Below, piece by piece: positions 9,270 through 54,517 of a stretch of 64,000 nucleotides of DNA (the stretch's first letter is position 1; every line of letters begins with the position of its first letter). A program made the position numbers and the translations under genes. The notes below the pieces were generated by a model. The model made no database searches, was not told the origin of the DNA, and was given only the letters and a program-made list of their open reading frames with translations. Source of the stretch: Moniliella sp. 'wahieum' (taxonomy: Eukaryota); assembly GCA_003971905.1 (NCBI GenBank), contig RSEE01000067.1, positions 124,001 through 188,000 on the forward strand, read 5' to 3'.

Positions 9270-9515
9270 GCAGATCTGAGTGGGGGGAGGTAGGCTACGT
9301 TGTGGGGGTCCCAAGTGCGCTGCTGCGTTCCAGGGCATGGCCGGGAGGGGCACTGGTGGCTGTCTGTCCAGAGAGGGTCAGATGTATTTGCCCCAGTCGG
9401 ACGATAGGAGGATGACATAATGCCCGCCAGGGAGGCTCGATACGGCTGACGTCATCTTGTCGCCGCCATAACGGTGCTGGGGCGGCTGGATGCTGCCGCG
9501 CCAGCTGGCCACCAC

Positions 9516-10748
9516 ATGCCCTCCTCCCCCTCCGCCCTCGCCGCCCCGGCCAGCGCCGCCCCGTCCCGGCATCCGCACTCGCGCTGGATGCGACCGAGTC
9601 AGACAAGCGCGTGCGCGAGTCGTACGCCAAGCTGGCCAAGATTGGCGAGGGTGCCTATGCCGCCGTCTTTCTCGGGCGGCATGAGCCGACGGGCGAGGCG
9701 GTGGCGATCAAGAAGATCAAGGTGGTCTCTGGTCATGACGGGCTGGACGTGACGGCGTTGCGGGAGATCAAGTTTCTTCGCGATCTGATCCATCCCAACA
9801 TTGTGCTGTTGCGCGATGTGTTCTCTTCTCCCGCGGCTGGCACGCCGGCGTTCAACATGGTCCTCGAGTTCCTCGGCGCCAGCTTGGAAGACATTATCCG
9901 TGACACCCAGACTACCATCACCCCGCCCGATACCAAGTCCTGGCTCGGCATGACATTACGTGGTGTCGCTTATTTGCACAGCCGCGGCGTGCTGCACCGC
10001 GACTTGAAACCCAACAACCTCCTCCTCTCGGCCCAGGGCGTGCTGAAAATTGCCGACTTTGGCTTGGCACGCGACGTGCCTGCCCCGTCCCCGGGAGCAC
10101 GGCCGATGAGTACCGAGGTGATCACACTCTGGTACCGCCCACCCGAGCTGTTGCTCGGGCGGGGTGGTACGGCGACCGGGTCGACATGTGGTCGGTGGGG
10201 TGCATCTTTGCCGAGCTACTCCTGCGCAAACCCTACTTGCCCGGCATGTCCGACATGCATCAATTCGAGCTCATCTGTCGCGCGCGCGGCATGCCGCGCG
10301 AAGCCACCTGGCCTGGACTCGGCAGTCTGCGCGGCTGGAAGGCCACTCGGCCGCGGTAGTGCAAGCGCTGGGCGAGAGCATTGCCCAGACCCCGCCCCCG
10401 CCTTTAGCTGGCACCTTTCTCGCGGCACGGGAAGAGGACTTATCGCTACTGGCGGGGTTGCTGGCGGTGAACCCGGCAGACCGCATCTCGGCGCAGGCGG
10501 CACTGGAGCATGCGTACTTTTCTGCCTGGCCCGCACCTACTCATCCATCCTTGTTGCCAGGCAAGCCGGGCGCGCCGGCAGTGCGCACCGGCGCCACAGC
10601 CCGGACACCGCAAATCGTAGGGCGCAAACGGTCCCAGGCTCCAGCTTCGCCTCGAACCCAACTGCCATCCCGCAAGCACGGTACTCTCTCCGCCCGGGAC
10701 CTGGCCGAACGACGACGAATCGCACGCAAGCTCGCGTTTGGGAATTGA
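9516..10748 (+). CDS. KIN28: TFIIH kinase Kin28/CDK7
   Basis: KIGEGAYAAV, VAIKKIK, DGLDVTALREIKFL, LHRDLKPNNLL, DFGLAR, MSTEVITLWYRPPELL, C-terminal ARKLAF. Confidence 0.85.
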
Positions 10749-10847
10749 TTCTTAACAGAAGAACACAAAAGAGGGGAAGGGGATCAGAAAGTCCGGTAGT
10801 AGCAGAGAGGAATGAATCGACAGGCAAGGGTGGGAAGCAGAAGCGAG

Positions 10848-13829
10848 TTAGGTAGGCAGGGATTCGGAAGAGACATAACGAATGTGGCCCCGTGCGGACC
10901 GGGGGTGCGGGGAGGGAATGTAGTGGGGCGAAACAGGTGGTCGGCGGTCGCTGGAAACGAGCGAAAGACGTTTGAGGCCCGAAGCACGGCGGGTGGCGAG
11001 ACCAGCGCCCCCGCCGGCGGTCGAGCCAGGACTAAGACTATCGACACTGCCTGCCGCGCTCAAGTTGGCAGGAGAGGGTGGGCTCGGGTCCAAGTGGGGC
11101 GTGGAGGCGCTGCGGTCGCGCAGCCGGAGTGGCGGTAAGGGGTCCCGTTCCTTACTGTACACGGTCTGCAGCTTGCGCAGCTCGTCTTTGACTTGTTTGT
11201 AGGCAGAGAGGATATGAGCTTCCTTGGTTCGGTGTTCCGTCTCCTTGGTCTGTTGCGTCAGAGGGGGTTGGGTTAGGTTCAGAGGCCGAGCCGCGCAACA
11301 CACAGACAGAGAGGGAAGAGAAGACGAAACGTACCATATTGGATTCGGCGGGCACCAGTGCTCGCAACCGTTCAATCTCGCGCCGCATCTCCTCCTTTTC
11401 CACGTTCATCTGGTGCAACGCCTTTTCTTGCCCGCGCGTCTTTTCTCGTTCTTGCACCAGCAGCGCTTGCAGATCCGCTTCCTTGCCCCGACGAGTGGGG
11501 GGGAGGTAGCTCTCCTCCAATTCGGCTTCGAGTTGCGTCACCTCGGTCTGCCACAGCTCCAGCTCCTCTTCATGCGTCGAGGCCATGAGCAACATGGTCT
11601 CGCTCTGCTGGTCCAGGAGGGATAGCAACTGTGCTCGTTCAGCCTCCTGCGCTTCCTTTCGCATACGGCGCAGGTGCAGGTACCGTGTCGGCAGTTCGCC
11701 CAGCTCGGGCGCCGAGCCAGGCTCGGGCAAACTGCCATCGTCCAGCTCAAACAGGTACGCCAACAATTTCTGTTCATGCAACGTCTTTTTGAATGCTTGT
11801 GCCACCCCTGTCATATGGGTTCGTTAGTCATCCTAGTCTACCTCTCGACCCCCACACACCAAGGAAAAACGGACAGACACGTACCTTGAAAGGCGCCGGA
11901 CAAGTTGGGAGGGTCACCACTGGCGAGCGGAGTCCAGCGTGGCCCAGCGGGCGGAGACGCTTCGCTGGAAGGAAGGGTGAGTCCATGCTTGGTCGGAGTT
12001 CGGTCGCCCACGAGGGAGGGCGAACTACTGGGGAAGGGGGGGCTGCAGAGCGAGCTACGGCGTGCCGGGCTGTCGTCATGCTGATGTACCGGCGACGAGG
12101 GGGGCGAGAGAATGCGTACGGGCGGCAGAGGCGTGAGCGTAGTGCGAACAAAAGGCGAAGGCAAAAAGGAGGGTTGACCGAGTCGAGTTGGATCGTTTTC
12201 ATCATACTCCTCTTGCTCTTCTTGTTGCTCTTGTTGCTCGCCTTGTTGTCGCTCATCTTGGTATTCAAAGTCGTCTTCATTCTCATTTCCATTTTCATCT
12301 TCGTTTTCGTTTTCGTCTTCCTCCTCCGGCTCGTCCTCCTCGTCCTCAGGGTCCGACAGGGGGCTGTCACGATCGGTATCGTGGCTGGCATGGCTGCCAT
12401 AGATTGGCAGGCTGGTGTCGGCCGCGGCGGGGCTGGGCAAGAGCCAGGAACGACGGTGGGGGCTGAGATCGTTTGGCTTGCGACCGGGGAAGGCGCCAAA
12501 GGTGCTGGTATGAATTTCTTGTGGCAACCCGTGGTGCACCGACAGGCCCGGGGAAGCAGCGAGCCGATTCGAAGGCGCAAGGGCGGCGAGCCGACGGCCA
12601 AGGTTAGACCCAAACTACGATGCGGAGAAGTGGTCGTGGCCCGGTTCGGGGGGGAGGCGAAGCAGGCTGATGGGGGTCTGGGTCGAGCAGCGCGGCGGGC
12701 GACGGCAGCGCATCGGATGAGAGACTTCGTTTGTGCGGAGCAGGCACCGGCGAGTGCGGGGGCAGGCTGTGTCGCGCATACGGCTTGACACCCGACGGTA
12801 AAGGCGGGAGCGGAATGGTGGGCGGTGGGGTGAGCGGAGGGGGGCTGCGGTTCGGCTGGCAGGGGGAGAGCAGGCCCGGGGATACCGATTGGGGCAAGGG
12901 GCTGAGACGAGGCGCGAGCGGCGAGCGATTGGGGGGGCGGTGCTCGCCTGACCACCGCTGAGGACCAGCGAAGAACGAGTGAGGCGCTCAAATGCCGAGG
13001 CGCGCCCGAGCTGGAGCGGAGGGACTTGTTTCCGCGGGGCTCCGGGATAGCGCGTGGGAGGCCGGCCGGGCTCGCCCAAAGAAGGAGACAAGGTGGAAGG
13101 CAGGAACGAGAGCGGCGACGCGGGCGAGACCTGCTGTTGCTGCTTCTGTTGCGGCGGCGGCGGCGGTGGCGGTTGAGGCAGCTGAGGCAGCTGCAGCGCA
13201 CGGTCTGCCTCGAGCTCCATCTCCATTTCGAGGCGAATCAGGTCTTGCGCCTGCTGCTCCTCCGAGTCGGGGCTGGGCGGGCCAGTGACGCGGGATAGGC
13301 CGGAGAGGGAGGAGAGGCGGAGCGCTCCGCCCGGGAGTAAGTGCCAGGGCGGACGGCTGGGCGGTGGGGACGGCGAAAAGGGGACACTGGCGGGAGAGGT
13401 GACCGAGTCCGGCACAATGCGTGGGTCGGGCGAGGGGCGCGGAGACACGGCACTGTTGCGCTCCGACTGGGGCACGTCGGGCGGGGAGCCAGCCGAAGGC
13501 GGAAGTAGCCGGACCTCTTTGGGGCCTGGGATGGCACGGGAGTGGAAGTGAATGTGGTCACCACTGCCTTCTTGGTCGTTGTCGTCATCGTCAACATCAA
13601 CGTCGTCGTCGTCGTCGTCGTCGTCGTCCTCTTGGTCATCTCCTGACCCGTTATAGTAATAGTCGGCGTAGTCGTCGCCCTCGTCGTCGTCATCCTCATT
13701 GTCAGGGCCGAGGGGATGGTGGCTTTGAGGACGAGGGGAACGGCCGGTGGAGATGTAGCTGCGACGGGCCACCTGGATGCCAGCCAGGATGGCGTTGGCC
13801 GAGTCGATCTGGTTCTCCCAGCGGTGCAT
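10848..13829 (-). CDS. Hypothetical low-complexity (poly-Asp, Pro/Ser, acidic) protein with C-terminal coiled coil
   Basis: Long ORFs 12615-13988, 11838-12539, 11152-11814 and 10848-11375; heptad-like EEELELWQTEVTQLEAELEE and AYKQVKDELRKLQ; GT-AG introns near 11810-11884 and 11250-11333. Confidence 0.6.
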
Positions 13830-14056
13830 GAGCAGCTGGGGTGAGGAAGGGCGACTAGTGAGTGGAGGGAAGGACCGCTGCCGACGGCGGGTGGTGTTGG
13901 TGTTGGTTGGTGCCTGGTGGCCGCCCGAGTGCAAGCCCAGGTGTGGCTTGCTAGCGCGGCGGCGCCACCAAGTAAGCGCTATGTTCATGCATCATGCATC
14001 ACCATCAGCCACCAATGTATACTACGTACTCGATCGTTTCTATCCATTTTACCGCC

Positions 14057-15166: not shown

Positions 15167-18100
15167 ATGTCCACTCCCAACGCAGCTGGCCAAGCCACGC
15201 TGGACGCCGGCGTGCAGCAAGTCGTTGACGCCACGCTGTCCAACGGCGCAGCCGCCACCGCCAAGGCCCTCGACCACGCCTACGGCCCTCACTGGTCGGT
15301 CCTCTCTGCCTCCGGCACACGCATCGTCCACGCCGACGCCGGCACCCTCCTCACCCTCCCCACCGCCTTTGGCGAGGTGACAGTGTGGAAGACGGCCGTG
15401 CTAGCCCAGGACGCAGACCACTTTGCTGCCACGCCCGCCACGCCGGGAATCCATACCGACGTTGCCGCCTCGCTGGAGCAAGTGTCGCTGGCAATGAGAA
15501 CCGAAGTGTATGCCCTGGCTGGCTCGGCCCTGGCGCTTTATGGAAGCTCCGCCATCCAAGTCGCCAATTACATCCAGGACAAGATCGCCCTCTCTCCGCT
15601 CTTTGCCGAGGGTTGGCACATCCACACTGGAACGTCATTTTCCCTCCTCCCCTTTAGCACCGCCAACAAGGTGGTTGACTTTGTTGTGGCCGGGCAGTGT
15701 TTTACCCTCTACTTTGGCCATGTTGCTGCGCCTGCTTTGCCTGACACTGCGGGCTCCAAGGAAGCGGCGACGACCATTGGCACCGCCATTGTGGAGGAGG
15801 AAGGCTTCGGAATCCAAGGCAGCGCACAACTCAACACCCCTATTACTCCCGTCTTGGCCGCAGGCCAGACCGTTGTCCAGACCTCCAACCAGGTCGACGT
15901 CAACGAAATCAGCACTGCCGAGGGCAGCACCATCGAGGTTGCCCCGCAAGTTGCTGATGAGAAGAAGAGCATCACGAACATTACCACCACTGAACAAAGC
16001 CGTACGCTGCCTGCCCACAGCACCACAGCGGCCATCGTGGAAGAGACCTCGGGCAGCGCCGCGGCCGTCGGCCCGGTCGTTGGGTCGACGACAACAACAA
16101 CAACCAAGGAGTAGTAACCAGCGTTCCTGCCTCCGAGACCGTCGTGGTACAGCTTCCATCGAAAGAAGTGGTGGAAACAGTGCAAGTTCAGCACCAAGCC
16201 CAGCCCACGGTGACAGAGACGCAGGAGGCGCATGTGGTCGAGGTCGGTGGCGCTGGCGCTGCGCTCCCAATCACCACGCGTGAAGTCCGCGACGTCACCA
16301 CAGGCTCCACCGCCACGTCATCTACCAACACCACCGTTCATACCACCACCAGTCCTACGGCCCAGCCTGGAAAGTCGGTGTTCACAACGGTGACCACCGT
16401 CACAGAGGAAACTACCTATGTGATCGGACCCAATGGGGAGCTAATCCCTCAGTCAACGTCGCAAGTGACAGAAGTAACTCCCAGCGAAACGTACCAGGTG
16501 GAAGGTACAGCGTCGGCTGGGCCGTCTGGCAAACCGAGCAGTACGTCGTCTCAACCACGACTGTGGGGGAAGACACCACGTCTCCCCGTGGACAGCCCAG
16601 CACGGAAACCAAGCGGGCCGAGAGCCAAATGCGTTCGCTGGCCCAAGACTGGCTTGGCCTGGGCGTTGTGGCTGGCACGGTTGGGCTAGTGCATTCGCTT
16701 CGGCCCGAGGTTCGGAGTGCCTCACGCGAACAATTGTTGTCCACCAGTGAGGTGACCCGCACCTCGCTCACTTCCCTGCCGGAGGCGGAGGTGCAGACAA
16801 TTTTGGTAGACGCCATCCACACCTCCACTTCCACCGCCGAGCTGGCTCAGTTGGTCCAAGATTCGCTCACGACCAAAACGGGCAAAAGGGATGGTACCTA
16901 TTGGTCGGTGAGGTGGAACTGGGTCCCAAGGTGCTCGAGGTTTACCGTATCAAGTTGGCTTCCGAGACGTTCACTGTCGTTCGGATCGATCGGGAGCAAA
17001 GCACGGTCAAGAAGCAGATCCCTATCCCCCAACCTCCCGTGAATAAAGAGACTATTATTAGCCTGCCTCATCAAGAGACGGGAACCAAACAAAGTACGTA
17101 TTTCATCCTTCTTGTTCTTTTTGCATGCACGTGTACAGAACTAACACTATTCCGCGACCTCTTGTCAAGTTGAAGAGGAGGCCAAGGCGAGGCACAGAAG
17201 TGGTTGTAGCTTTGCCCACCCTTTCCGGTCCTCCGACAACGAATACTACATCGATCCAAGACCTGGTTGAGGAAACGCGTGGTGTGACTCTGACGACCGA
17301 GACGTCAAACACATCGGATGTCCAGACCAAGGAACAACAGATCGTGGCCCTGCCTTCGGTCGAACAGACCGTTGTCCAGGTGCAACCAGAAGAGAAACTA
17401 AGGAGCAGAAGAGTGGATTGTCAATCGAACATGAGACCGAGGTCTACCAGAAACCTGCTACGGAAACTGCGATTGAGGTCGTGAATACTGAGGCTTCAGA
17501 CACCGCCACAAAGACCGAGGTGGATGTCCAAGAGAAGCAGTCAAATCAACCTCAAGTCGAAGTTGAAAAAACTGTGCAATCGTCTGCGGATCAGATTAAC
17601 GAGTCTGTTGATGTGACCGAGACAACGCAGACGACGCAAGTCCGAGAAATCCAGTCGATCCAACCTGAATCCGAGACTCAAAAGTCTGTGGCCTCTGTGG
17701 TTCAAGTGGTGGACACGGAGGCAGAAACGACCCCGGATACGAAGACGGAAGCCATGTGGATCCAGCCCAAAGAGGAGGTGAAAACGCCGGCGCTGGAGTC
17801 TGCAATTGAGAATGTTGAGGAGGCGGAGGCAGTGGAAACTGCCAAGGTGGAAACGTCCACGGTTGTCCAAACCACTACTGAAGCCAAGGAGACTACGGCC
17901 GTGGCGCAAGAGACGAAGCCCGAGGAGACTATCATCGTCGAGAAAGAGATCCCGGTCGTCGAAGAGGCCAAGGTGGAGGAAGATGCGAAAACAACGGAAA
18001 CAACGGATGTTGGCGCAGTGACCAATCTCGAAAGCACATCCGAGGCCAAGGTGAAGGAGCAGACCAGGGAGGTGGAGGCAGCGGCGGTTGTTGCGGCTGG

Positions 18101-21100
18101 CGTGGTCGCGGCGCATGAGACTGCTGAAGAGGTCACCAGTACTTTGGCCGAGCGAAGTCTCCCAGCCGTCGAGCAGAGCAGCACAGTCGAGGAGCATGAG
18201 ACCAAGGCGGTTGAGGTGGAAGAGAGCGAGGTGGTTAACAATGAGACCACGAAGGAGGAGGTCAAGTCCGTCGAAGAGAAGGTTACACCTGATGTTCCCA
18301 TTGCCTCTGTGGTGGAGTCGAAGGAGACCGAGGTGGAGGTGGAAGTGCCTGCGCCCGTCAGCGCGCCGGCTCCTCGCGGGATTGAAAGCAGCACAATCCA
18401 GACCCAGGTTCAAGGGACTGAGAGTGTTACCACCCAAGAGATTCGCGAGACCAAGCAGGTGGAAACGACGGAGAGTACCGAGGAAAGTGTTGCCGTTGAC
18501 GTCGCTGCCCAACCGGAGGAGACCGGTCCCCTTCCAGCTCGGGAATTACCAGCTGAAGTCACGGAAGTGGTGACTGAGGTCGAAGTACCTGCCCCGCGTG
18601 AACTCCCAGCGAAAGAGACGGCGCCACAAGAGCTTCCGGCCGTGGTGTCAACTACGCGTGAGATTCCACAGCAGGGAGCACCAACCCGTGAGGTGGGCCA
18701 GACGAGTGCAGCGGAAGAAACCACGGTGCAAGAGACGACGGTCGAATCATCTCAGATTACCACCCAAGAGATTCGCCAGGAACAGCATGCCGTGCCGACC
18801 ACCCAAGTGACCGAGGTGGACGTGGTGGAATTGCCCACTCGCGAAACGAAAGATCTGACCAAAACCTTGACCGAAGTGGTGGGGGGAGAAACGGTCGTAC
18901 AAGCGCCGAAAGAAATCTCCACGGGCGAGGTGACCACCTCCCGGGAACTGCCCGCTCCACGGGAAGTGCAACCGGTGCAGCCGGCAACGACCAGCCGCTG
19001 GGGATTCCGGCAGTGGCTGCACGGCTTGGGCAGCAAGGCGGCAGAACACGGTGCGAGCGTAGCCACCGTCGCGGGCGGCGCGGTTGCGACGGCGATCGCG
19101 GGCGTGGCGGTGGCCAAGACGGTGTCTGCGGCGGCTAAAGACAAGACGGCAGAGCAGCTGCGCTCGATGGCCCAGCTCGGTGCGTCCAAGGGTGCGTCGG
19201 AGCACGAGTCGCAGCTGGTGCTCGACTCGGTCACGCAGGCCATCACGACCACGACGTCGACCGACGAAGTGGCTGACGCGGTGGCCCAGACGCTGGAGGA
19301 CCAGACGGGCCAGACGGGATGGCACGTGGTGGTGGCCGAGGACAAGTATGCGGACGTGGGGGCGGCAGAGGATGTGGCGGCGTACCAGACGCTCGAGGGG
19401 GCGGACAGTACTACACGGTGTACCGGACGGTGACGACGATCACGCCGGAGACGCGCACGCAGCTGGTGCAGTCGCTGCAGTCGCCGACGGCGGTGAGTGG
19501 GACGACGCTGTCGGAGGCGGAGACGAAGACGGTGCTGGGCGCGGTTGTTAGCTCGGTGGAGACGGCCACGTCGGCGGAGGACATTGGGACGGTTGCTGTT
19601 CAGAAGCTCGAGGCCGAGACGGGCAAGGTGGGTTGGCACGTTGCGCCAGCCTCTAGCGTCGAGGTGGGCACGCTCACTCAGTACACGATCCTCAGTACGT
19701 CTCACCGGTTCCCCCCCTGATTTTGCATGTGAAAACTAACAGCTTCTTTGTTTTGTTCCACCGCCAGCGCTGGGAGGTCAGCCGACCGTGGTGTACTATG
19801 AGGGTATCGAATCAGCTGCCGAGCAGGTGGCGGAGACCCAAGAGACCCAAGAGACCCAAGAGACACAAGAGACAGTCGAAACGCGCTCTGTGCATGAACA
19901 CCGGGACCAGCTCAAGGAGAAGGTTGATGATGTGAAGGAGAAGGTGGACGAGGCGAAGGAGCACGCGAAGGACAAGGCGAAGGACGCGCTGGGCCTGGGC
20001 GCGGTGCTGGCCGGCGTGGTGGTGCTGCACGAGATTGAGAAGCACACGCGCGAAAAGACGGAGGCGGAGCTGGTCAAGGACGCCCAGGTCGACTCCCACA
20101 CGCAGTCAGTGTCGGACGAGGTGGTGGTGGACACGATTGCCAAAGCCATCCGCGCGCACGGCGAGTCGTCCGAGGAGGTGGCGCAGTATGTGACGTCGGC
20201 GCTGGAGAAGCAAACGGGCCAGACGGGCTGGCAGCTGGTGGTGGGCGACCGGCGGCTGCTGTGAGCGAGGCGGGCGCGGCCGAGTATTCGACAGTGACGA
20301 TTGACAAGCACGTCTTTACTGTGTACCGCATCGTCACCACCACCACTACGACCGTCACTACCACGACCACTGCCGAGACGGGCGCGGAGGCGACGACGAC
20401 GGAATCGGTCGCCCGCACGCAGGAGACGGAGGTGGTTGCGCCCAAGCGCCGCGGGGGGTGGGGTCTTGGCAAGCTGATCCGGTCGCTGGGGGCGAGTGCA
20501 GCCGAGCATGGCGCAGCGGTTGCGGGCGGCGCAGTTGCGACGGCGATCGCGGGCGTGGCGGTGGCCAAGACGGTGTCTGCGGCGGCTAAAGACAAGACGG
20601 CAGAGCAGCTGCGCTCGATGGCCCAGCTCGGTGCGTCCAAGGGTGCGTCGGAGCACGAGTCGCAGCTGGTGCTCGACTCGGTCACGCAGGCCATCACGAC
20701 CACGACGTCGACCGACGAAGTGGCTGACGCGGTGGCCCAGACGCTGGAGGACCAGACGGGCCAGACGGGATGGCACGTGGTGGTGGCCGAGGACAAGTAT
20801 GCGGACGTGGGGGCGGCAGAGGATGTGGCGGCGTACCAGACGCTCGAGGTGGGCGGACAGTACTACACGGTGTACCGGACGGTGACGACGATCACGCCGG
20901 AGACGCGCACGCAGCTGGTGCAGTCGCTGCAGTCGCCGACGGCGGTGAGTGGGACGACGCTGTCGGAGGCGGAGACGAAGACGGTGCTGGGCGCGGTTGT
21001 TAGCTCGGTGGAGACGGCCACGTCGGCGGAGGACATTGGGACGGTTGCTGTTCAGAAGCTCGAGGCCGAGACGGGCAAGGTGGGTTGGCACGTTGCGCCA

Positions 21101-24100
21101 GCCTCTAGCGTCGAGGTGGGCACGCTCACTCAGTACACGATCCTCAGTACGTCTCACCGGTTCCCCCCTGATTTTGCATGTGAAAACTAACAGCTTCTTT
21201 GTTTTGTTCCACCGCCAGCGCTGGGAGGTCAGCCGACCGTGGTGTACTATGAGGGTATCGAATCAGCTGCCGAGCAGGTGGCGGAGACCCAAGAGACCCA
21301 AGAGACCCAAGAGACACAGAGACAGTCGAAACGCGCTCTGTGCATGAACACCGGGACCAGCTCAAGGAGAAGGTTGATGGTGAAGGAGAAGGTGGACGAG
21401 GCGAAGGAGCACGCGAAGGACAAGGCGAAGGACGCGCTGGGCCTGGGCGCGGTGCTGGCCGGCGTGGTGGTGCTGCACGAGATTGAGAAGCACACGCGCG
21501 AAAAGACGGAGGCGGAGCTGGTCAAGGACGCCCAGGTCGACTCCCACACGCAGTCAGTGTCGGACGAGGTGGTGGTGGACACGATTGCCAAAGCCATCCG
21601 CGCGCACGGCGAGTCGTCCGAGGAGGTGGCGCAGTATGTGACGTCGGCGCTGGAGAAGCAAACGGGCCAGACGGGCTGGCAGCTGGTGGTGGGCGACCGG
21701 GCGGCTGCTGTGAGCGAGGCGGGCGCGGCCGAGTATTCGACAGTGACGATTGACAAGCACGTCTTTACTGTGTACCGCATCGTCACCACCACCACTACGA
21801 CCGTCACTACCACGACCACTGCCGAGACGGGCGCGGAGGCGACGACGACGGAATCGGTCGCCCGCACGCAGGAGACGGAGGTGGTTGCGCCCAAGCGCCG
21901 GGGGGTGGGGTCTTGGCAAGCTGATCCGGTCGCTGGGGGCGAGTGCAGCCGAGCATGGCGCAGCGGTTGCGGGCGGCGCAGTTGCGACGGCGATCGCGGG
22001 CGTGGCGGTGGCCAAGACGGTGTCTGCGGCGGCTAAAGACAAGACGGCAGAGCAGCTGCGCTCGATGGCCCAGCTCGGTGCGTCCAAGGGTGCGTCGGAG
22101 CACGAGTCGCAGCTGGTGCTCGACTCGGTCACGCAGGCCATCACGACCACGACGTCGACCGACGAAGTGGCTGACGCGGTGGCCCAGACGCTGGAGGACC
22201 AGACGGGCCAGACGGGATGGCACGTGGTGGTGGCCGAGGACAAGTATGCGGACGTGGGGCGGCAGAGGATGTGGCGGCGTACCAGACGCTCGAGGTGGGC
22301 GGACAGTACTACACGGTGTACCGGACGGTGACGACGATCACGCCGGAGACGCGCACGCAGCTGGTGCAGTCGCTGCAGTCGCCGACGCGGCGGTGAGTGG
22401 GACGACGCTGTCGGAGGCGGAGAGAGACGGTGCTGGGCGCGGTTGTTAGCTCGGTGGAGACGGCCACGTCGGCGGAGGACATTGGGACGGTTGCTGTTCA
22501 GAAGCTCGAGGCCGAGACGGGCAAGGTGGGTTGGCACGTTGCGCCAGCCTCTAGCGTCGAGGTGGGCACGCTCACTCAGTACACGATCCTCAGTACGTCT
22601 CACCGGTTCCCCCCTGATTTTGCATGTGAAAACTAACAGCTTCTTTGTTTTGTTCCACCGCCAGCGCTGGGAGGTCAGCCGACCGTGGTGTACTATGAGG
22701 GTATCGAATCAGCTGCCGAGCAGGTGGCGGAGACCCAAGAGACCCAAGAGACCCAAGAGACACAAGAGACAGTCGAAACGCGCTCTGTGCATGAACACCG
22801 GGACCAGCTCAAGGAGAAGGTTGATGATGTGAAGGAGAAGGTGGACGAGGCGAAGGAGCACGCGAAGGACAAGGCGAAGGACGCGCTGGGCCTGGGCGCG
22901 GTGCTGGCCGGCGTGGTGGTGCTGCACGAGATTGAGAAGCACACGCGCGAAAAGACGGAGGCGGAGCTGGTCAAGGACGCCCAGGTCGACTCCCACACGC
23001 AGTCAGTGTCGGACGAGGTGGTGGTGGACACGATTGCCAAAGCCATCCGCGCGCACGGCGAGTCGTCCGAGGAGGTGGCGCAGTATGTGACGTCGGCGCT
23101 GGAGAAGCAAACGGGCCAGACGGGCTGGCAGCTGGTGGTGGGCGACCGGGCGGCTGCTGTGAGCGAGGCGGGCGCGGCCGAGTATTCGACAGTGACGATT
23201 GACAAGCACGTCTTTACTGTGTACCGCATCGTCACCACCACCACTACGACCGTCACTACCACGACCACTGCCGAGACGGGCGCGGAGGCGACGACGACGG
23301 AATCGGTCGCCCGCACGCAGGAGACGGAGGTGGTTGCGCCCAAGCGCCGCGGGGGGTGGGGTCTTGGCAAGCTGATCCGGTCGCTGGGGGCGAGTGCAGC
23401 CGAGCATGGCGCAGCGGTTGCGGGCGGCGCAGTTGCGACGGCGATCGCGGGCGTGGCGGTGGCCAAGACGGTGTCTGCGGCGGCTAAAGACAAGACGGCA
23501 GAGCAGCTGCGCTCGATGGCCCAGCTCGGTGCGTCCAAGGGTGCGTCGGAGCACGAGTCGCAGCTGGTGCTCGACTCGGTCACGCAGGCCATCACGACCA
23601 CGACGTCGACCGACGAAGTGGCTGACGCGGTGGCCCAGACGCTGGAGGACCAGACGGGCCAGACGGGATGGCACGTGGTGGTGGCCGAGGACAAGTATGC
23701 GGACGTGGGGGCGGCAGAGGATGTGGCGGCGTACCAGACGCTCGAGGTGGGCGGACAGTACTACACGGTGTACCGGACGGTGACGACGATCACGCCGGAG
23801 ACGCGCACGCAGCTGGTGCAGTCGCTGCAGTCGCCGACGGCGGTGAGTGGGACGACGCTGTCGGAGGCGGAGACGAAGACGGTGCTGGGCGCGGTTGTTA
23901 GCTCGGTGGAGACGGCCACGTCGCGGAGGACATTGGGACGGTTGCTGTTCAGAAGCTCGAGGCCGAGACGGGCAAGGTGGGTTGGCACGTTGCGCCAGCC
24001 TCTAGCGTCGAGGTGAGCAAGCTCACTCGGTACATCATCATTGGTTCGTCCATCCCCCTCCCCCCTCATTTGGCTTTGCTAACCTCCTATAACAGTGTTG

Positions 24101-25772
24101 GGCGGCCAACGTATGATTGTTTATTACCTGGGCGGGGGGTCCGAGACTACCGCTCGTCTCTCTGCTCCTGAACTTCATCACTCCGCATCATCTACTTCTG
24201 TATTGGGTGTTGGCTCTTCTGGCTGGTGTCTCTCTACTGCACACTCTTTCTGACCGCTGGTCTACTGCTTCGACTGTGGAGTTGTGGCAAGCAACGACCA
24301 TCGACTCGGATCAATCCAATGTCCCCAAGGCTGAGGCTAAGGAGATGGTCGAGATAACATTGTCGTCGATTCGCCAATACGGAACGGACACGACCAAGCT
24401 GAGCGAGGTGGTGGCGGCCAAAGCTGAACGAGAGTCATGGTGGGAGCGACGGTCACTGGATTGTGCTCGTGGCCAATGGGTTTGCCCAGCAGGTGGAGTC
24501 ACACGCCACACGTTGGCTCCTTTTCAATGTTGACACTGTTTACTTTACTCTGTTCTATACGGTGAACCACTCGTGGCGTGCGGGCTTCAGCCGATGGCTC
24601 TCCCGCCGGGTCAATGATGCGCATGACCGGATCGCTGCGGTTAGTGAGACGCTGACCGGGATGACGTCTGGCCTGACACTCTGGCACCAAATTGGGGACG
24701 ATACCCGCAGTTTGTCTGTCGAAGAACTTCGTAAGGCGACGACGTTCGAGGGAAGCACACTGGGCGGTGACGAAGCCGAGATGGTATACACGCTTACCTA
24801 CCAAGCCATCCGTGAACACGGCGAGTCGAAGCAAGCGCTAGACGGCTGGCTTATCGCTCAACTTAACCAGCACAGTGGCGGGTGGGAGGTGATTGTCGCG
24901 GACAAGTATGCCGATGCGGTGAAGCAAGCGGATACGGTGGCAGGCTACACATTTTTCCGGGTAGCGGCCTACTACTTCACCATCTATCGCCTAGTTTCGG
25001 TTCACCATGCCACGATCGCACCTGAGGCGGTGGGAGAGTTTGGCCTGGCCAACACAATAAGGTCCAAGACACTGCGCGAGTTGACGGCGCACTCAGAGTT
25101 TGTCGAGGTGGCATCTCCTTTGGACGAGGCGGACCGCACGTTGGCTCTCGATCTGGCTACCCGCAGCATTCATGCTCACGGCGAGTCCAACCTAGAGATG
25201 AGCAAGGCGATGGTGCGCAATCTGACCCAACGCACGGGGCGCGAAGGCTGGCTGGTCTGGGTGAGTCAGTCGAGCTTTGTGGCACCCCCAGCAGGAGCAC
25301 GCTATGTCTACTTTGTTATCTTTGGGTACTACTTTACCGTGTGTGTACTCTACGGAGCCGGCGCCGCCTCGGACGTTGCGCGCGGAAAGCTCGAACTCCT
25401 CCCTCTCCAGTCTGTCCCTCGCCGAGCTCCCTGCTTCCTTGCAGGGGGTGGGACTGCAAGAGTTGAAGACCTACATTGAATTGCACGAATCGACGCTGAG
25501 CACATCGTACCGCGACGCGGTGCTGGAGACGGTGGTCCAGGCGTTTGCACCAGCACCATGCATCTCCAACGAAGGTGCGCAGCTTCACTACAACCTATCT
25601 TGACAAGACCACCAAGCCCGGGTGGCACCTCCATATGGGCTCTACTTTCACGCCACATGAACAGCTCAGCGCCGAGCACGTTCTCTTCGTTCTACACGGC
25701 GTTCACTTCTCTGTTTGGCGCACTGACCCCAAGAAGCACCACCACAGAGGATGGCTTCACAAGTTTATCTGA
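15167..25772 (+). CDS. Giant multi-domain protein with ~18 tandem dynein light chain (LC8/DLC1)-like domains and an acidic Thr/Val/Glu-rich spacer
   Basis: Repeated helix-helix-GW(H/Q/E/L)xx(V/T/M)-beta-beta units such as TEVYALAGSALALYGSSAIQVANYIQDKIALSPLFAEGWHIHTGTSFS..VDFVVAGQCFTLYF, paralleling LC8 ([61 protein letters not shown]); ORFs join via 1-nt indels and GT-AG introns (~17094-17169, 19695-19767 and its copies, ~24044-24095). Confidence 0.7.
19071..24015 (+). repeat. Near-identical intragenic tandem repeat, unit ~1.45 kb, ~3.4 copies
   Basis: Unit starts at 19071, 20522, 21969 and 23420 (periods 1451, 1447, 1451); each unit holds three DLC-like domains and a ~72 nt intron. Confidence 0.95.
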
Positions 25773-31883: not shown

Positions 31884-34800
31884 GGCGGAGATGCGACGGG
31901 ATGGGTCTGGGCTGGACCGGGGGCGCCCAAGGGTGGTAGTGGTGTGGCAGACGAGCGATGGCACACGTGACCGGGTCCAGCCCTCGGATTTGCATTTTGC
32001 ATTTTGTTTTGTTTTGTTTTTTCTTTTTTCTTTGCGTGTCTCAGGCTGCGTCTGCGTTTCCTGATTGGCACAGCTATTCGGAAGAGGGTGCACGTGCCAG
32101 CCGCCCCCGTTGCGTCTGGGGCCCCACACGCTGTCCTCCTGTTACTAGGGTCTTCACGCTTCCAGCGTTCACCATCAAGCTCTAGCTTCCTTGTCGGCCC
32201 TACGAGTGTTAAATCGGCCTCGGAAAACTGAGTGACGGATCGATCGATCAAGTCAAGATCAAGGTTCAACACATTCAAGTACAAGCGAAGATGAAGTAAA
32301 AGAAAGGCCGCGGAGTAACTACAAAAAATTGCCTCTTGGCCGAATCGAACGACCGATCTTCTCATTACTAGTGAGATGCTTTACCACTGAGCCAAAGAGG
32401 CTTGCTGTTTATGGGTTGTTTGCATGGTGTCCAAGCATGCACAATGAAAAGTGAGCCACGAGCAGGTTAGGAACCCCTGGCGCCCTCCCCCATCCAAACC
32501 GGATGTAGCGCACGTGGGTACGAATGAGCGTAGCAGACATCTGAGCGATGAACCGTCTCCACAATGTGACACAGACTCATCTCGACCGGTTAACTCTCAC
32601 AAGTGCCCAGCCATCTCCTTCATCGCCTTGGTAGCATAGTGTCCTCAGAGGAAGAAGGGTTCTTGGGTGCGTCCGTGGCACTTGGAAGTTCTTGTCGCAT
32701 TCTGCTTCTTGTCCCAATAGTAAAAGCAGCTCCTTCTTCCGGCATTCCAAAAGGCAATTCTGTGGTTCTTTGGCCTCTGTACCGCGCTCCCATACGCGGA
32801 CATCGCCTCTATTGTGTCCGGACCCGCAACTACGTATAATGTCCTGAACTTTGTTGGGTTGCAGGGATGAGATCTCCCAAAAGGGAAATGAGGATAGAAG
32901 GAGAGCCTTTTGCGACGGCCCACTCAGGAGGTTTTGTACATAAAGATTCGAGTCTTATTAGGTAGTGCATAAAAAGGAGACATTTATAGGCCTCTGTAAG
33001 CCTGTGGTGATCGGTGAATGTTGAGCCACCGGGTGGCTCGAGTGTTTGACCAAGACCCCTTGAAGCTCTCCTCCGGCCTCTAAGGCCTAGGAGTTCCGTT
33101 GTTTTCTCCCTTCCTTTCCCTGTTCCGCAGCCGACACTTACATATAGCCCCTATGGTGGCGACTGATATTGGCTGCTTGTGATGTTCATTTGTTAGGTGT
33201 TGTTGGTTGGGTTCGACTATACCACCGCCGCCACTATAGTGTGCAACTGCATCCCCATCTCGACGACCACAATACTGGACACCGGACTCCAAGCTCCAAG
33301 TCTCAGATCTCATCATACATCAGTGAAGCCGTGACGGAACTGTGCGGCGGTTGTCCGATGATTTCGATAAGTAGACCGAGAGTGTGTTACGGGCTGGACC
33401 GGCCCCGTGGCAGGGTGAGATGACATGGAACGCCGCACAAGTGTTACAGGGACGCACCTGCGAGATCTCTGCTCTTGCCCTGTGTCCACACACATGATGT
33501 GCATGATGAGATGATGCGAGAGCGCTTCAGAGTCCTTCCCGCTATAGATCCGTTCTGTGAGAACAAAGAACGTCAATGGTGGAGAGAGTCTCTGAAGATC
33601 TGAAGCTTGAAGCTTGATGCATGCACTTGATGGTCGATGGTTCGCCTATCTCCATTCGGTGTGTTCTCAGGTCTCACTGGCTCACCACCACCCCTTTTTG
33701 TCGTCACATGTCACATGCATGTCACACATGCCATGCATGGAGGGGTTCTCTACGTTCTTGTGTGACATGTGAGATCGGAGATCCGCCCAATGTGACCTAG
33801 TGACGCCGTGACATGGGACGTGTGACCTGTGACCTGTGATGCCGAGCATGTGGTTGAGAAGCGAGAGCAGGGAAGCATGGATTGTAAACGCTGGGAACGT
33901 TGCATATGAGCTTGCCGGTTACCGGTTCCCAGGTTGAACACATCTCAACGTTTGTTTGTGGCCATAATGCAATCAATGGCCGATCATATGATCAAGCACA
34001 TCGTGCACAGCACGAGGCTGAAGGAAGCTTGAAGCGCTCAGGCTGAGCCTTCAGCCGCTGAATGAAGGAAGGCTGAAGCACACTGAAGTACTTTTGATTA
34101 TACTGATGTACTGATGGCACTGCGTTGATGATCGATGTCGATGAGTACTCAGTGAGTACTGAGATCGATGAGACCGAGTACTCAGTTACTCAGTACTCAG
34201 TCTGAGTACTGAGACTCAGTACTTAATCCTCACAGTACTCAGTATATTCAACACTCCCTCCCAACAGTAAAAAAACTCAACACTCAACACGTACTCAGTT
34301 ACTCAAAGTTCAACGTTCAACGTCCCCTAGTAACTAGTAACTAGTAACGGAGTATTCTCAGAGACGCCAAGCGCTTCATCTTGAAGCGGGAGATCTGGGC
34401 TTGATCGATGATTGATGATTGAATATTGATGCCCAAGCGCTCACGCTTCCAGTCGACCTGGCTTTGACAGCCCAGCAGGAGCGCCTGAGCCCTTTTTGAG
34501 CGTAATAGAGCTCTGCTTTGCATTCATATCATTCATGGCAAAACGCACGTATAAGACAGAGGGACAAAAATATAGATGCTGTTGACAGGCTGATGCGCTG
34601 GCGCCCTCCAAGGGCGAGAGTAATCTTCAGACCTTGGTACTGTTGCAGTGTTTTAAACCAGTATGACCTTACGTGGCCCGTAGCGCGTGCATCCGTGGAG
34701 GGGGAGCGTCTGGGTGGGTAAGAGGGGTGCGGGCTGGTGATGCAGAGACCTACCACATATGATGTCACATGGCACACGGGATGGCTCGATGGCAGCATCG

Positions 34801-39155: not shown

Positions 39156-39240
39156 GCTTCAATGGGTTAGTGGTATTCTATATCGTTGCCATCACGAAGT
39201 GTGCGTCGATATGACAGGGGTTCGATTCCCCTTTGAAGCA
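39156..39240 (+). tRNA. tRNA-Gly(GCC) with ~14 nt intron
   Basis: Acceptor GCTTCAA/TTGAAGC, anticodon stem TATCG/CGATA around TT-GCC-A, T-arm AGGGG-TTCGATT-CCCCT, followed by TTTTTT. Confidence 0.92.
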
Positions 39241-49934: not shown

Positions 49935-52660
49935 CCTGGCAGGGAGATGGTGGTGGGGAGGAGGAAGGAGAGAGCACGCGCTATGGACTGCGCAAACGAC
50001 AGGTGGGATGGGTGTGTGGCAGACACAGGGGCCGTGCGTTGCGCAACGGGAAACGGTACTAAATGATTAATGATGGCGCAAAGGTTGTGTCAGGTGGGTG
50101 GCCAATGTGTGTGCCTGCAAGTGCTGCCTCCGCGGCGGCCGGGGGATGGTATGGATGAGAACAGATGAGGGACGATCGGGATCGATGACCGTCCGATCAC
50201 CCCACGGACGCTCTCTACTTGTGCCGCGCGCAGGCGCTCAGGCCGTTGGCTGAGCTGCCCTTTTGAGTCGACGGCTCTTCGGGCGCACAGCGCCAAGGAA
50301 GGCAAACGCCTGCCTGCCGGTACGCAAGCCGCAGAGGAGCAACCGGAACAACCTGCCACAACTCACACCACTCACCACAACCCACCACAACCCACCACAT
50401 GCGCAGCACACAAAAAAGCCCCAGGGCCACCCAGCCACTAGTCACGAGTCACTAGTCACCGCCAGTCACCGCGCCCACCAAGGATGCCGCCTGCCGTGCA
50501 GCTGCAGCACACGGCAGGCTGCTGCGTACCGCGCTCAGCTTCGCTCTTCTTACTTGGGTGGGGGGGCTTTGCGTCGTCTTGAAGAGCTCCATTCGCTTCC
50601 CTCGCCGGCTCCTCGATCAGATCGATCATGAATCATCGATCATCGATCATCAATCATCCCCTGCCCGCGCCAGTGCCCCAAACACTGTCGGCGTGCTGGG
50701 TGGGCGTGCTGGCGAGCGAAACAGGCGCCGACACTGGCTTGGTGCGGTGTGCGCCACCCAGTGATCTGCTGTGGCGGCGGCGATCTCGGCTGGATTTTAT
50801 TTGGCAGCTTGAGTACTGCAGTACAGAGTCTCAGTACTGATTAATTACTGATGGCTTTGCTTTGCTCGCCTCGCCTTGTGCATGGCCCGCCGTGTCGGCC
50901 GCCTGGCAGACGCGGGCCTCAGGCTGAGGCCTGAGATCAGGCGACGGCTGCGTAGCCGCCGGGGCCGGTAAGAGTGGGAGGCACAGCAGATGCCGGGTAC
51001 CTAGTAGCTGGCAAGGCACCAATACTCGTGCTGATGCGTGATAGTATGATGCACTACCAATGGATGGCACATGCGCCCTGCGCACCGGCACAGCACTCTA
51101 GAAGGCGGCAGATCTCCACGGTGAGATGCGAGACAGGATGCATGAAGCACATAGGCTAGTAGTTCATCGTAGATGTTGGTCAAGTCGAAGATCAACAACG
51201 GTCACCCGGTCCCCTCCTTCATCTGCACCACCACCCCTACCCAGTACCAATCAAACACTCCGGCGGTTTGGGTGTAGCATGTAGTTGGCTGTCGAAACGC
51301 TGGCGCTGACCACCGTGGTGGCGGTTCGATGTTGGTTGGTGGGTGCATCTTCTGTGGGTGATTATGTGATTGGGAACATCAGCAAGCTGGACATTGCGAC
51401 AGAGAGCCTCTCACCGGCGTGTCTCTTTTGGTTGTCGTTTCTATATACATGGCCGTGACATAATGTGACACTGCTAGTTCATCACATGTCACATGCATGA
51501 TCTGCGTCATTGCTACTACTGGAACGGCCGATCTGGAGAATATGAGGATCAGGAATACTTTGCCGCTGTTGGCATCTCTGTCCTTGAAGGAGGACAGACA
51601 ACAAGACGAGGGTCCGGATTTACCTCGCGGCGGGGGATACACTATGTTGGTAGGCATCAAGCTTGTCCACCTTCTCCAAGCCTGCGTACCAGGTGGACAC
51701 GAGGCGGAATGGGGGGAAATTGGCAAGTAGCTCTCTCATGGACAAGCGGGCAGAACAAAGAGAAAGAGCTCATCATGCATCACTCCCCTCAAGGTCTCCA
51801 GGTACCTGCTACAGCCAGGTCACGCACTGACTGTTCAATATTCAGTACTCAGTCTCAATCCCAATCCCATCTGCACAGCCATGGTTCGGAGGAATGCAAC
51901 AGGCAAGGTGGTTCCACCAACCCCAGCTGTCCCCGGCCATTGCCACTCCAGCTGTCCCCGGCGGCCATCGGCAAGGGCATGCTTGCCTCGTCAGGCAAAA
52001 AGTCCCTCGAGTTCATATTATAAGCCAAAACGGTGAAGGGGGCACGCAAGGTCACGCACCACCGCAGGCCATGTGATCCCAAGAGAGCCCCCGCCATGCC
52101 AAGAGAAAGGTGGTGCAAGTATGTGGGCTGGCTGCAGCCGTTACATGCATGGTGTGCAGGAGGCAAGGCAAGACAGCAGGCCGCGAGCACTAGGCACGGC
52201 GGAATGACCCTGGAGTCACGGTTGACCGCTCCACAGTGACGCAATCGCGCTACTTGTGGTGGTGGTGATAGCAGTGGCGCGTGTGGTGGTGGTGTACGGC
52301 AGTGGACATCTGCGGGTCAGTAGGCCAGGCACTCTCCCTGAGTGCGTGTGCCTCTGCTCCACTCTCCGCCCTCCGTTCCGCTTGGTTCGGCCCCCTTCCG
52401 CCTCGTTCGCTCCATTCGGCATTTGAAACTTGGTGTGGCAGGTTGCTATGTCAAAGTTTTTTCTTTCAGCGGTCCGCAGCCTGTTACCTAATCACGACAA
52501 AACCTGCCATCCATCCGGCCACGTGGAATCGGGCCGCGTGGAGGATGCCCACAGTTAAATTGCTGGCGCGCCACGTGGCTTCCGGCGGCTTCGGGGATAA
52601 ATAGATTTTTGGCTAGCCCCGACATCCTACTCGCACCTGCCTCCGCCACCATCCAGCGCC

Positions 52661-54517
52661 ATGGCATCCAGAGCACCAATGTTCCCCACGCGTAGGTCTT
52701 GGGCCGCGCTGGCGATGGGGATCGGGGGCTGTCGTCTTGTCTTTTCTTCTCTCGTTTGCTGTGGGCGGCGACGCACAGTCTCATCTGCCTTCAGTACTAT
52801 CGGACGCGTTGCTAGCTACGCCACCAGGCAACTTGCGGACCGCGGCAACCGAGGACCTGTTCGAGGGGCCCTTGTCCAACTGTACCTTGCGCGGGCCCAT
52901 CGAGAACGCTGAGTGCAATTACGAGCAGGTCGACCAAATCAACGACGACTTCTTCACCCAGCTCCAAGCCATTGTCGCCACTCCCTATTTCCGCTATTAC
53001 AAGACCGACCTGGACAAGGCCTGTCCCTTTTGGCCCGCCAACTCGTTCTGCACCAACGAAAACTGTGCTGTTCAGACCCTTGACGAGGTTCGTATCTACT
53101 TTCCTCGCTGGTCGCTTCTCCCTCTGACTCTTGCCCTTTTCCTTCTCCCCACCTCTCGTTTTCTCTGTCACCCACAGTCGGACGTACCAGAAAAATACCG
53201 GACCAGCACGCTTTCTGCTGTTTCTACCACCCCGGACGAAGTTGTTGCCCACCTAAGTGGGGGCACGGGAGCGTCTTCTTGTCAATGTGACGAGACCAAC
53301 TTTTGTCACTGGGACGACGTGAACTCCCCCGATGCTGTTTTTGTTGACCTGCAACAAAACCCCGAACGCTTCACGGGCTACAGTGGGCCTTCAGCGGCGC
53401 AAGTGTGGCACAGCATTTACGAGGAGAACTGTTTTGGGGTGCCAGGTAAGGCAGTAGGGGTGCCTGTTTTGGCGTCGCCCCCCTCGGGCACAGGCTTCAA
53501 CTCCGACATGTCCCTTAACCCAGCTGCTTCACAAGCATTTGCCTCCTTCCTCTCGGCCATGCAGCCTGACCCGGTTGAAGTCAGCCCCGAGACGGAGAGC
53601 GACACGTGTTTGGAAAAGCGCGTATTTTACCGGATCATCAGTGGTCTTCATGCCTCCATCTCGATCCACATTTGTGATGACTATCTGGACAAGGAGACGG
53701 GCCAATGGGGGCCCAACGAGCAATGCTTCCGGTCTCGGATCGCCAACTTTCCCGAGCGGTTGCAGAACCTGTACTTTGATTATGTCCTGTTTTTACGTGC
53801 GCTTGCACGGGTCGGCGAACAGGCTGCGCTCCAACCCAACTTTACCATCACCACCGCCGGAAACGAGATGGATGACGAGGCGAGCAAAACGGCGTTTGAC
53901 CAGCTCCTCCGTTCGGCGACCAAGCTCAAACCCACGTTTGATGAACGAACGATGTTTTCGGGACCGGATGCGGGGGGCTGCGGGAAGAATTCAAGCACCG
54001 CTTCCGCAACGTGACGGCGATCATGGACTGTGTCGGGTGCGACAAGTGCCGGTTGTGGGGCAAGGTGCAGACGAGCGGAGTGGCAACAGCGCTTAAGATC
54101 TTGTTTGCCTACGATGACCAGGAGACGGCACATGGTACCCATCGTTTCCTCCAGCGATCCGAATTGGTCGCCTTGGTAAATACGGCGAATCGACTTGCTG
54201 AAAGCCTCAAAGCGGTTGAACGTTTCCGTGCCATGTACCAACAAACGCTCAACGTTGAGCAGCCCATCCAGCCTCAGTCCAGTACTGCCCGGGACGTTCA
54301 CCATCCCTTGGCCAACCCACCTTTACCCCCAAAGGAGAAGGACTTCCAAAATGCCCAAACCTCTCCTCCTCCTCTTCTTCACCACCAGCGAGTGCAACTG
54401 AGTACTTGCAAGCACATGAAGACCTGTAATAACAATCCGTGTACTAATGGGAAACTACTTTACGGCCGAGAACGCGGCAATGACACTCCTTCTAACCACC
54501 CACATGCTAAGGTATAG
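52661..54517 (+). CDS. ERO1: ER oxidoreductin Ero1
   Basis: PYFRYYKTDLDKACPFW, VDLQQNPERFTGYSG, IYEENCF, CLEKRVFYRIISGLHASIS, IMDCVGCDKCRLWGKVQ (CxxCxxC); intron 53088-53177. Confidence 0.95.

Follow-up and report, generated by a model that had tools for sequence, protein, structure and literature searches.

A predicted Moniliella gene coding for a chain of tandem LC8-fold units

LC8 is among the most conserved and best-studied hub proteins of eukaryotes. To our knowledge, it acts either on its own, as a small free dimer, or as a single domain within a small fusion protein. Here we describe a locus in Moniliella sp. 'wahieum' (GenBank assembly GCA_003971905.1, contig RSEE01000067.1, forward-strand positions 124,001 to 188,000; these 64,000 nucleotides (nt) are the window to which all positions below refer), where positions 15167..25772 (+) very probably form a single gene, predicted from the DNA, that codes for a tandem LC8-fold protein. 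For the combined statement, that this is one gene with 18 LC8-fold units whose product acts as a multivalent pairing scaffold, we put the probability at roughly 0.6.

Characterised LC8 and dynein-light-chain-like (DLC-like) domains work as dimers joined edge to edge, and it is at this interface that LC8 binds strands of its partners, according to the sections cited (PMC12347358, PMC6607443, PMC10886578); the same sections place the binding pocket at the LC8 dimer interface (PMC6607443) and describe dimers of DLC domains as sharing one interface (PMC12347358). The cited part of the latter source also covers the trematode TAL/CaBP proteins, in which a diverged DLC-like domain within a larger protein still dimerises through the usual interface (PMC12347358). 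Among clients of LC8, ASCIZ, Nup159 and KANK1 are described, in the portions cited, as assembling free LC8 dimers in large numbers into ladders or rods (PMC5963919, PMC10046861, 10.1101/2025.07.16.665182, PMC4315244).

One predicted gene with 18 units

The raw sequence of 15167..25772 is not one open frame. A conceptual protein was obtained by removing five introns and then letting a codon-usage dynamic programme pick the frame path; on the spliced sequence 18 small frame changes were needed, yielding 3,420 codons with zero stops. The gene starts at the ATG at 15167, giving a product that begins 'MSTPNAAGQ...', and its last frame closes with '...GWLHKFI' before a stop codon at 25770-25772. This path bears out the original prediction of a single frame of roughly 3,400 amino acids (aa) after joining, and both of the C-terminal peptide strings quoted in that prediction were found in the window. 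The five introns share the fungal-type pattern GT[AG]xGT...CTAAC...AG with lengths of 52-76 nt, and a purine-rich strand skew runs unbroken from 16 kb to 24 kb. The conceptual product is acidic (D+E 486 versus K+R 250), contains 14% Thr with poly-T runs and 0.1% Cys, and shows no N-terminal signal peptide by eye, the first unit (u1) beginning at the initiator Met without a hydrophobic leader. The gene and its introns are as follows.

15167 (ATG)..25772 (stop), +, whole gene; 3,420 aa after excision of 5 introns and correction of about 18 small frame changes
17094..17169, +, intron 1; 76 nt, GTACGT...CTAAC...AG
19695..19767, +, intron 2, splitting unit c1
21147..21218, +, intron 3, splitting unit c2; 72 nt, with an in-frame stop inside
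22593..22664, +, intron 4, splitting unit c3
~24044..24095, +, intron 5, splitting unit c4; GTTCGT...CTAAC...AG

Anchor motifs around an invariant Trp identified 18 units: 3 N-terminal, 11 in a tandem array (4 b, 4 c and 3 a) and 4 C-terminal. A hidden Markov model (HMM) of the unit (A2), made from 13 unit pieces, recognised exactly 18 near-full-length units in the conceptual 3,420-aa protein, with independent E-values (i-E) of 5.5e-19 to 2.2e-36 and a combined length of 1,803 of the 3,420 residues. The count of about 18, divided as 3 + 11 + 4, had been made by the original prediction and is upheld by both approaches. When A2 was run over 1,683 six-frame segments of the window, no units were found elsewhere: matches lay solely on the + strand at 15167-25742, and the best outside reached i-E 1.2. 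Since A2 was trained on these units, the window scan serves as a control for absence elsewhere and not for significance.

Each unit spans about 95-106 aa and comprises, in order, a short helix, β1, two long helices, a 'G-W-x-V-x-V' strand (β2), a variable stretch and two aromatic strands ending in 'FTVYR'. The unit had originally been sized at about 75-85 aa, which proved too short because the short helix and β1 precede the two long helices. The short N-terminal helix bears a recurrent [KS][TS]xxEL motif. Identity between unit types is about 20-37%, and the core Trp is kept in all nine unit types; only types b, c, u2 and C4 have His after it ('WH'), the rest having WQ, WE, WL, WY, WS or WI, and a G..F-like continuation after the Trp is seen in u2, C4 and C1. 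Units u1 and u2, and likewise b and c, adjoin without a spacer, and unit c is interrupted by an intron. The units are listed below with the residues around the Trp; P0001, to which the C-terminal entries refer, is a protein of a relative described in a later section.

15167..15409, +, u1 (HWSVL); starts at the initiator Met, most diverged, without the N-terminal extension, i-E 2.1e-17
15425..15730, +, u2 (GWHIHTGTSF); 15 nt past u1, among the most LC8-like, Dynein_light E 3.6e-4 over profile positions 10-84 of 86
16704..17002, +, u3 (GWYLLVGE); frame change near 16886-16908
19125..19441, +, b1 (GWHVVVAEDKY); frame change near 19398-19404
19439..19797 (end approximate), +, c1 (GWHVAPAS); split by the intron at 19695-19767
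20034..20347, +, a1 (GWQLVVGD); frame change near 20247-20250
20576..20893, +, b2; intact in one frame, i-E 3e-33
20891..21248 (end approximate), +, c2; split by the intron at 21147-21218
21482..21796, +, a2; intact, i-E 1.8e-34, the unit folded with AlphaFold2
22023..22339, +, b3; frame change near 22254
22337..22694 (end approximate), +, c3; frame changes near 22376-22386 and 22420, intron at 22593-22664
22931..23245, +, a3; intact, i-E 4.8e-34
23474..23791, +, b4; intact, i-E 4.2e-33
23789..24131 (end approximate), +, c4, last copy, diverged; frame change near 23918-23922, intron at ~24044-24095
24261..24573, +, C1 (HWIVLVANGF); frame change near 24425-24444, orthologue in P0001 residues 51-159
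24691..25008, +, C2 (GWEVIVADKY); intact, orthologue in P0001 residues 199-305
25051..25344, +, C3 (GWLVWVSQ); intact, orthologue in P0001 residues 318-425
25451..25742, +, C4 (GWHLHMGSTF); frame change near 25544, the P0001 orthologue being a full-length Dynein_light match (best stretch 459-542)

Copies in the array are the same but for small indels, with c4 diverged. Linkers account for about 47% of the chain and are of four kinds: a T/V/E/S-rich linker of 325 aa, a strongly acidic linker of 682 aa, and two linkers that recur in every array period, one with a K/E-rich helical repeat after an (ETQ)n run and the other with an A/G/V-rich stretch after a poly-Thr run. The 682-aa linker, with 0.7% aromatic residues, falls on the disordered side of a charge-hydropathy plot.

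19083..24074, +, tandem array; period about 1,449 nt (1,446-1,452), about 3.5 periods, unit order b c a b c a b c a b c
15731..16703, +, linker rich in T, V, E and S, about 325 aa long; two frame changes, near 16109 and near 16510
17170..19124, +, long linker, acidic and rich in T, E, V and Q; 682 aa from u3 to b1, partly upstream of intron 1

At the nucleotide level, each array period holds a 9-nt microrepeat (GAGACCCAA), 4.6 copies of which code for (ETQ)n (19833-19873, 21284-21323 and 22730-22770), and the linker from c to a in each period carries a 21-nt repeat coding for KEKVD(D/E)x (19914-19961 and 22811-22858). Array copy B differs from copies A and C at these microrepeats by small indels with a local frame shift.

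Homology and predicted fold of the units

The assignment of the units as diverged members of the Dynein_light superfamily is supported by every test run: Pfam, a profile search of PDB sequences, hhalign, AlphaFold2 with Foldseek and language-model neighbours all concur with the LC8/DLC-like character originally predicted. Dynein_light was the top Pfam family and was listed for 6 of 9 open-reading-frame (ORF) pieces and for 4 of 10 single units; the best window piece scored 28.5 bits (E 2e-6), against a curated gathering cut-off of 29.1, the pieces being broken by frame changes. P0001 passed this cut-off with 56.5 bits (E 3.7e-15), matching profile positions 2-86 of 86 in unit C4. When the unit profile was compared with PDB sequences, 28 of the 35 matches at E<=10 were dynein light chains, including the best nine, and the best match (E 0.003) had helices and Trp in register. 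A search of 1.84 billion proteins with the profile returned six (P0001-P0006). Two of these, P0005 (E 2.9e-4) and P0006 (E 5.3e-4), are genuine Dynein_light proteins, scoring 81 and 206 bits against the family, and hhalign aligned A2 with the canonical P0005 over 74 columns at 94.5% probability (E 7.6e-8). The units are 12-23% identical to a canonical member. P0003 and P0004 were judged spurious, as internal-repeat proteins with HEAT-type or other weak Pfam families and no Dynein_light, and were excluded from all alignments and from the tree. Language-model neighbours of unit a in the Atlas carry PF01221 (score 0.92, 21 of 30 matches in that set); the Atlas search with P0001 gave just one match, at 0.82, to a cluster without a name.

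That the units adopt the LC8 fold is supported by structure prediction rather than by a solved structure. Unit a was modelled with AlphaFold2 from an alignment of 12 paralogous rows that contained no LC8 sequence, and the model (mean predicted local distance difference test (pLDDT) 88, predicted template modelling score (pTM) 0.83) runs β1, α1, α2, β2, (β3), β4, β5 as in LC8. In a Foldseek search of the PDB with this model, all 34 rows listed were LC8/DLC-like domains or chains of dynein or axoneme complexes, with target-normalised template modelling (TM) scores of 0.61-0.78, the best being the DLC-like domain of Fasciola CaBP2 (E 3.1e-4). For the P0001 model, units C1-C3 reached pLDDT 70-90 within a mean of 56.7, and the top nine Foldseek matches were dynein-light-chain entries or dynein/axoneme chains (TM 0.70-0.83). 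The comparison by AlphaFold and Foldseek that the original prediction had proposed as a check thus returned LC8 topology, and no other fold was listed.

Relatives and alternative readings

Among the 1.84 billion proteins, true relatives number two, P0001 (557 aa) and P0002 (674 aa), which are partial models from one divergent relative; such a distribution fits the lineage-specific protein originally proposed. P0001 covers C1-C4 and, ahead of them, the last part of unit c. P0002 covers the region that follows intron 1, an additional unit, and then b with exon 1 of c. At its C-terminus P0002 runs into the unit-c intron, and P0001 opens with the strand just past that intron; judged from these sequences, the two are most likely halves of one mis-called gene with a single b-c period. 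No longer relatives were found for the C-terminal ORF at 628-2,000 aa or, by word index, for P0006 at 369-2,000 aa, and a similar-length search with P0001 returned P0001 alone, from one source, each of which is weak evidence. The original prediction knew of no fungal protein described with this architecture, and no tandem-LC8 protein of such architecture appeared in the full-text literature searched, a body to which subscription-only papers are external.

Each unit type is 55-67% identical to its orthologue in the relative. In a tree of the units, from which the identical array copies b2-b4, c2, c3, a2 and a3 were omitted, C1, C2, C3, C4 and c each paired with the relative's counterpart at support values of 90-100, the pairing of b being weak (86/18). 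Because the units pair one-to-one with those of the relative, the multi-unit architecture predates the split, and the sequences place at least b, c and C1-C4 in the common ancestor. Three identical 1.45-kb periods are present in the window, versus apparently one in the relative; the a-b-c periods would thus represent a very recent lineage-specific expansion, or else the period number is uncertain. P0002 has an extra LC8-like unit (residues 181-280) where the window has 18078-18257 in the 682-aa linker, the local alignment being weak (score 43). An A/V/G-rich stretch (AAAVVAAGVVAAHE) at about 18078-18257 resembles the hydrophobic segments that precede real units, and this part of the window may be the remnant of a lost unit.

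Two ideas about the linkers were set aside. For built-in ligands of the units, [TIV]Q[TV] motifs were counted: 9 occur in 856 linker residues against 6.3 +/- 2.4 expected, a number reached by 347 of 2,000 shuffles, and strict TQT occurs once. A membrane anchor was also unconvincing. The A/G/V-rich stretches before unit b peak at a Kyte-Doolittle hydropathy of 1.85-1.96, their equivalents in P0002 reach 1.5-1.6 and the stretch before C1 in P0001 stays below 1.4; a further hydropathy peak of the window, at 24153-24248, lies partly in a wrongly read frame.

The frame breaks are probably assembly errors rather than gene decay. They are probably not real because array copies B, C and D differ by indels without substitutions (about 10 indels of 1-2 nt in G/C runs or CG repeats, zero substitutions), because neighbouring conserved genes frameshift likewise inside their domains, and because P0001, colinear with 24225-25769 at 57-67% identity, reads straight through four window frames. 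Within ERO1, Pfam profile positions 273 and 276 sit 5 nt apart in different frames; in the kinase and the malic enzyme listed here, the frame switches fall within Pfam domains and are too tight for an intron.

9416-10852, Kin28/CDK7-like kinase, frame change inside the domain
52617-54514, ERO1, frame change inside the domain
61748-64000, malic enzyme, frame change inside the domain

The entire window appears to bear indel errors of the kind typical of an unpolished long-read assembly. The locus also cautions annotators: owing to frame errors and repeats, the gene is missing from protein sets, in which only the relative's two fragments are present.

Several observations weigh against the combined statement given at the outset. 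At the level of the family, no window piece alone reached the curated Pfam cut-off, and P0002, at 14.5 bits, fell below it. At the level of the gene, the period count of the array depends on the assembly, the periods being identical, and the relative's gene models are annotated as two separate proteins. At the level of function, the β3 region, which in LC8 provides the swapped dimer strand and the ligand groove, varies in length and sequence among the units and is the least confident part of the unit a model (a loop at pLDDT ~65), the four-unit P0001 model (pTM 0.29, 5-row alignment) shows no confident inter-unit packing, and TQT-like motifs show no enrichment over composition in the linkers and so give no hint of built-in ligands. 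With β3 variable and of low confidence, pairing or ligand capture may have been lost in some or all units.

It is quite improbable that the locus is a decaying pseudogene or its array a mis-assembly, such that the 18-unit protein does not exist as such: about 18 frame changes within 10.3 kb would suit this explanation, as would identical array periods, which are also expected of a mis-assembled repeat, but the copies show indels in homopolymer or CG contexts and no substitutions, essential-type neighbours (ERO1 and the Kin28-like kinase) carry the same kind of breaks, and with the array ignored the 3 + 4 units on its flanks still stand, together with at least one b-c pair, as in the relative. 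Several smaller genes, each with few LC8-like domains, are also improbable in place of one giant gene. The calling of the homologous stretch in the relative as P0002 and P0001 speaks for such a division; the end of one and the start of the other, however, meet at the unit-c intron, indicating that both are truncated models of one gene, and the corrected path across the window is stop-free over 3,420 codons with a continuous purine-rich skew from 16 to 24 kb.

As to what a single long protein would do, pairing modules seem the most likely role of the units because every characterised LC8 or DLC-like domain pairs two copies edge to edge, with a β-sheet shared between them; taken by itself, the pairing-scaffold mechanism, which is drawn from the family by analogy, is possible rather than probable. 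The units would act as pairing modules as those domains do, adjacent spacer-less units (u1-u2, b-c) could pair within the chain, or identical units of two chains could do so in register. In both cases the protein would be a long multivalent scaffold or tether that associates with itself, its units set apart by flexible acidic spacers, and so a covalent inverse of the ladders formed by free LC8 dimers along multivalent disordered clients. That it is a covalent polymer of such LC8-fold modules, and with this a previously unseen class of structural protein, is doubtful. Here at least two chains would zip in register through as many as 18 LC8-type interfaces, or be cross-linked out of register, to give a ladder, cable or gel with acidic entropic-spring spacers, perhaps as a cortical, septal or organelle tether whose length the recent a-b-c amplification would tune; if true, evolution would have turned the LC8 'dimerisation hub' principle inside out. 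Conversely, the LC8-derived units may no longer pair or bind, being inert beads on an acidic chain, elastic or protective (hydrophilin-like), that works through its linkers. This is unlikely, in spite of the poorly conserved and poorly modelled β3 and groove, the large linker share with its K/E-rich helical repeats and (ETQ)n runs, and the absence of predicted inter-unit packing, since unit types are 55-67% identical to their orthologues versus ~20-37% between types and hence individually constrained, the core Trp is in all nine types, and the 5-row alignment alone suffices to explain the poor multi-unit model. Finally, a Thr content of 14% with poly-T runs and a Cys content of 0.1% would befit a secreted or cell-wall Thr-rich glycoprotein with the repeats as wall-anchoring modules; but u1 begins right at the initiator Met and by eye lacks a hydrophobic leader, hydropathy in the A/G/V-rich stretches reaches 1.85-1.96 only before unit b and is weaker in the relative, and all LC8-fold proteins known to us are intracellular, which together make this explanation extremely improbable.

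The neighbours in the window include the Kin28/CDK7-like kinase, an Fcp1-type NIF+BRCT phosphatase, ERO1, malic enzyme and an ABC ATPase. The window is eukaryotic; as judged from the sequence, the label 'fungal' rests on intron style. Upstream of the gene, 11828-13991 (-) contains two long overlapping open frames of 469 and 458 aa with 65% G+C and no Pfam match. Two tRNA genes were noted, tRNA-Thr(AGT) at 32330-32401 (-) and tRNA-Trp(CCA) at 39156-39240 (+), the latter 85 nt long and probably with an intron.

Comparison with known systems

The 18-module chain would offer a system in which to ask how multivalent LC8-type pairing alters the mechanics or assembly of a disordered chain, and how far the LC8 fold can diverge (12-23% identity) and still work; the gene also exemplifies a domain array that apparently expanded very recently.

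The units resemble LC8 (DYNLL1-2, yeast Dyn2; PF01221) in fold order, in detectable homology, in the invariant Trp and in the 'WH' of b, c, u2 and C4. In contrast to LC8, which is a stand-alone protein of ~89 aa, 18 copies are fused here in a conceptual chain of ~3,420 aa, and the units have an extra N-terminal helix with the conserved [KS][TS]xxEL and do not conserve β3 and the groove. The canonical hub hallmark WHCIVGxxF, seen in P0006, is partly kept in the units. The protein is therefore not a canonical LC8 hub, being neither stand-alone nor in full possession of the hallmark motif. P0006 itself (210 aa) is alike in holding LC8 in tandem within one polypeptide, with two Dynein_light stretches (206 bits); it differs in having two canonical copies, without long linkers or further repeats.

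The trematode TAL/CaBP proteins (5fwz, 5fx0, 9voa, 5x2d) supplied the best Foldseek matches (E 3.1e-4, TM 0.67). These flatworm-specific proteins of ~190 aa combine an EF-hand pair with a single DLC-like domain, whereas the protein described here has 18 such domains. No EF-hand families were found in Pfam scans of the window pieces, the units or the orthologues, and with no EF-hands the protein is not a TAL/CaBP member.

The multivalent LC8 clients, as the cited portions of their reports present them, share with this protein the arrangement of many LC8-fold modules along a disordered chain. In the clients, TQT motifs bind separate LC8 proteins without a covalent link; this protein carries the modules within its own chain, and TQT-like motifs are not enriched. 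By analogy, the nearest functional picture would be the ladder that LC8 forms on multivalent clients, except that the modules belong to the chain.

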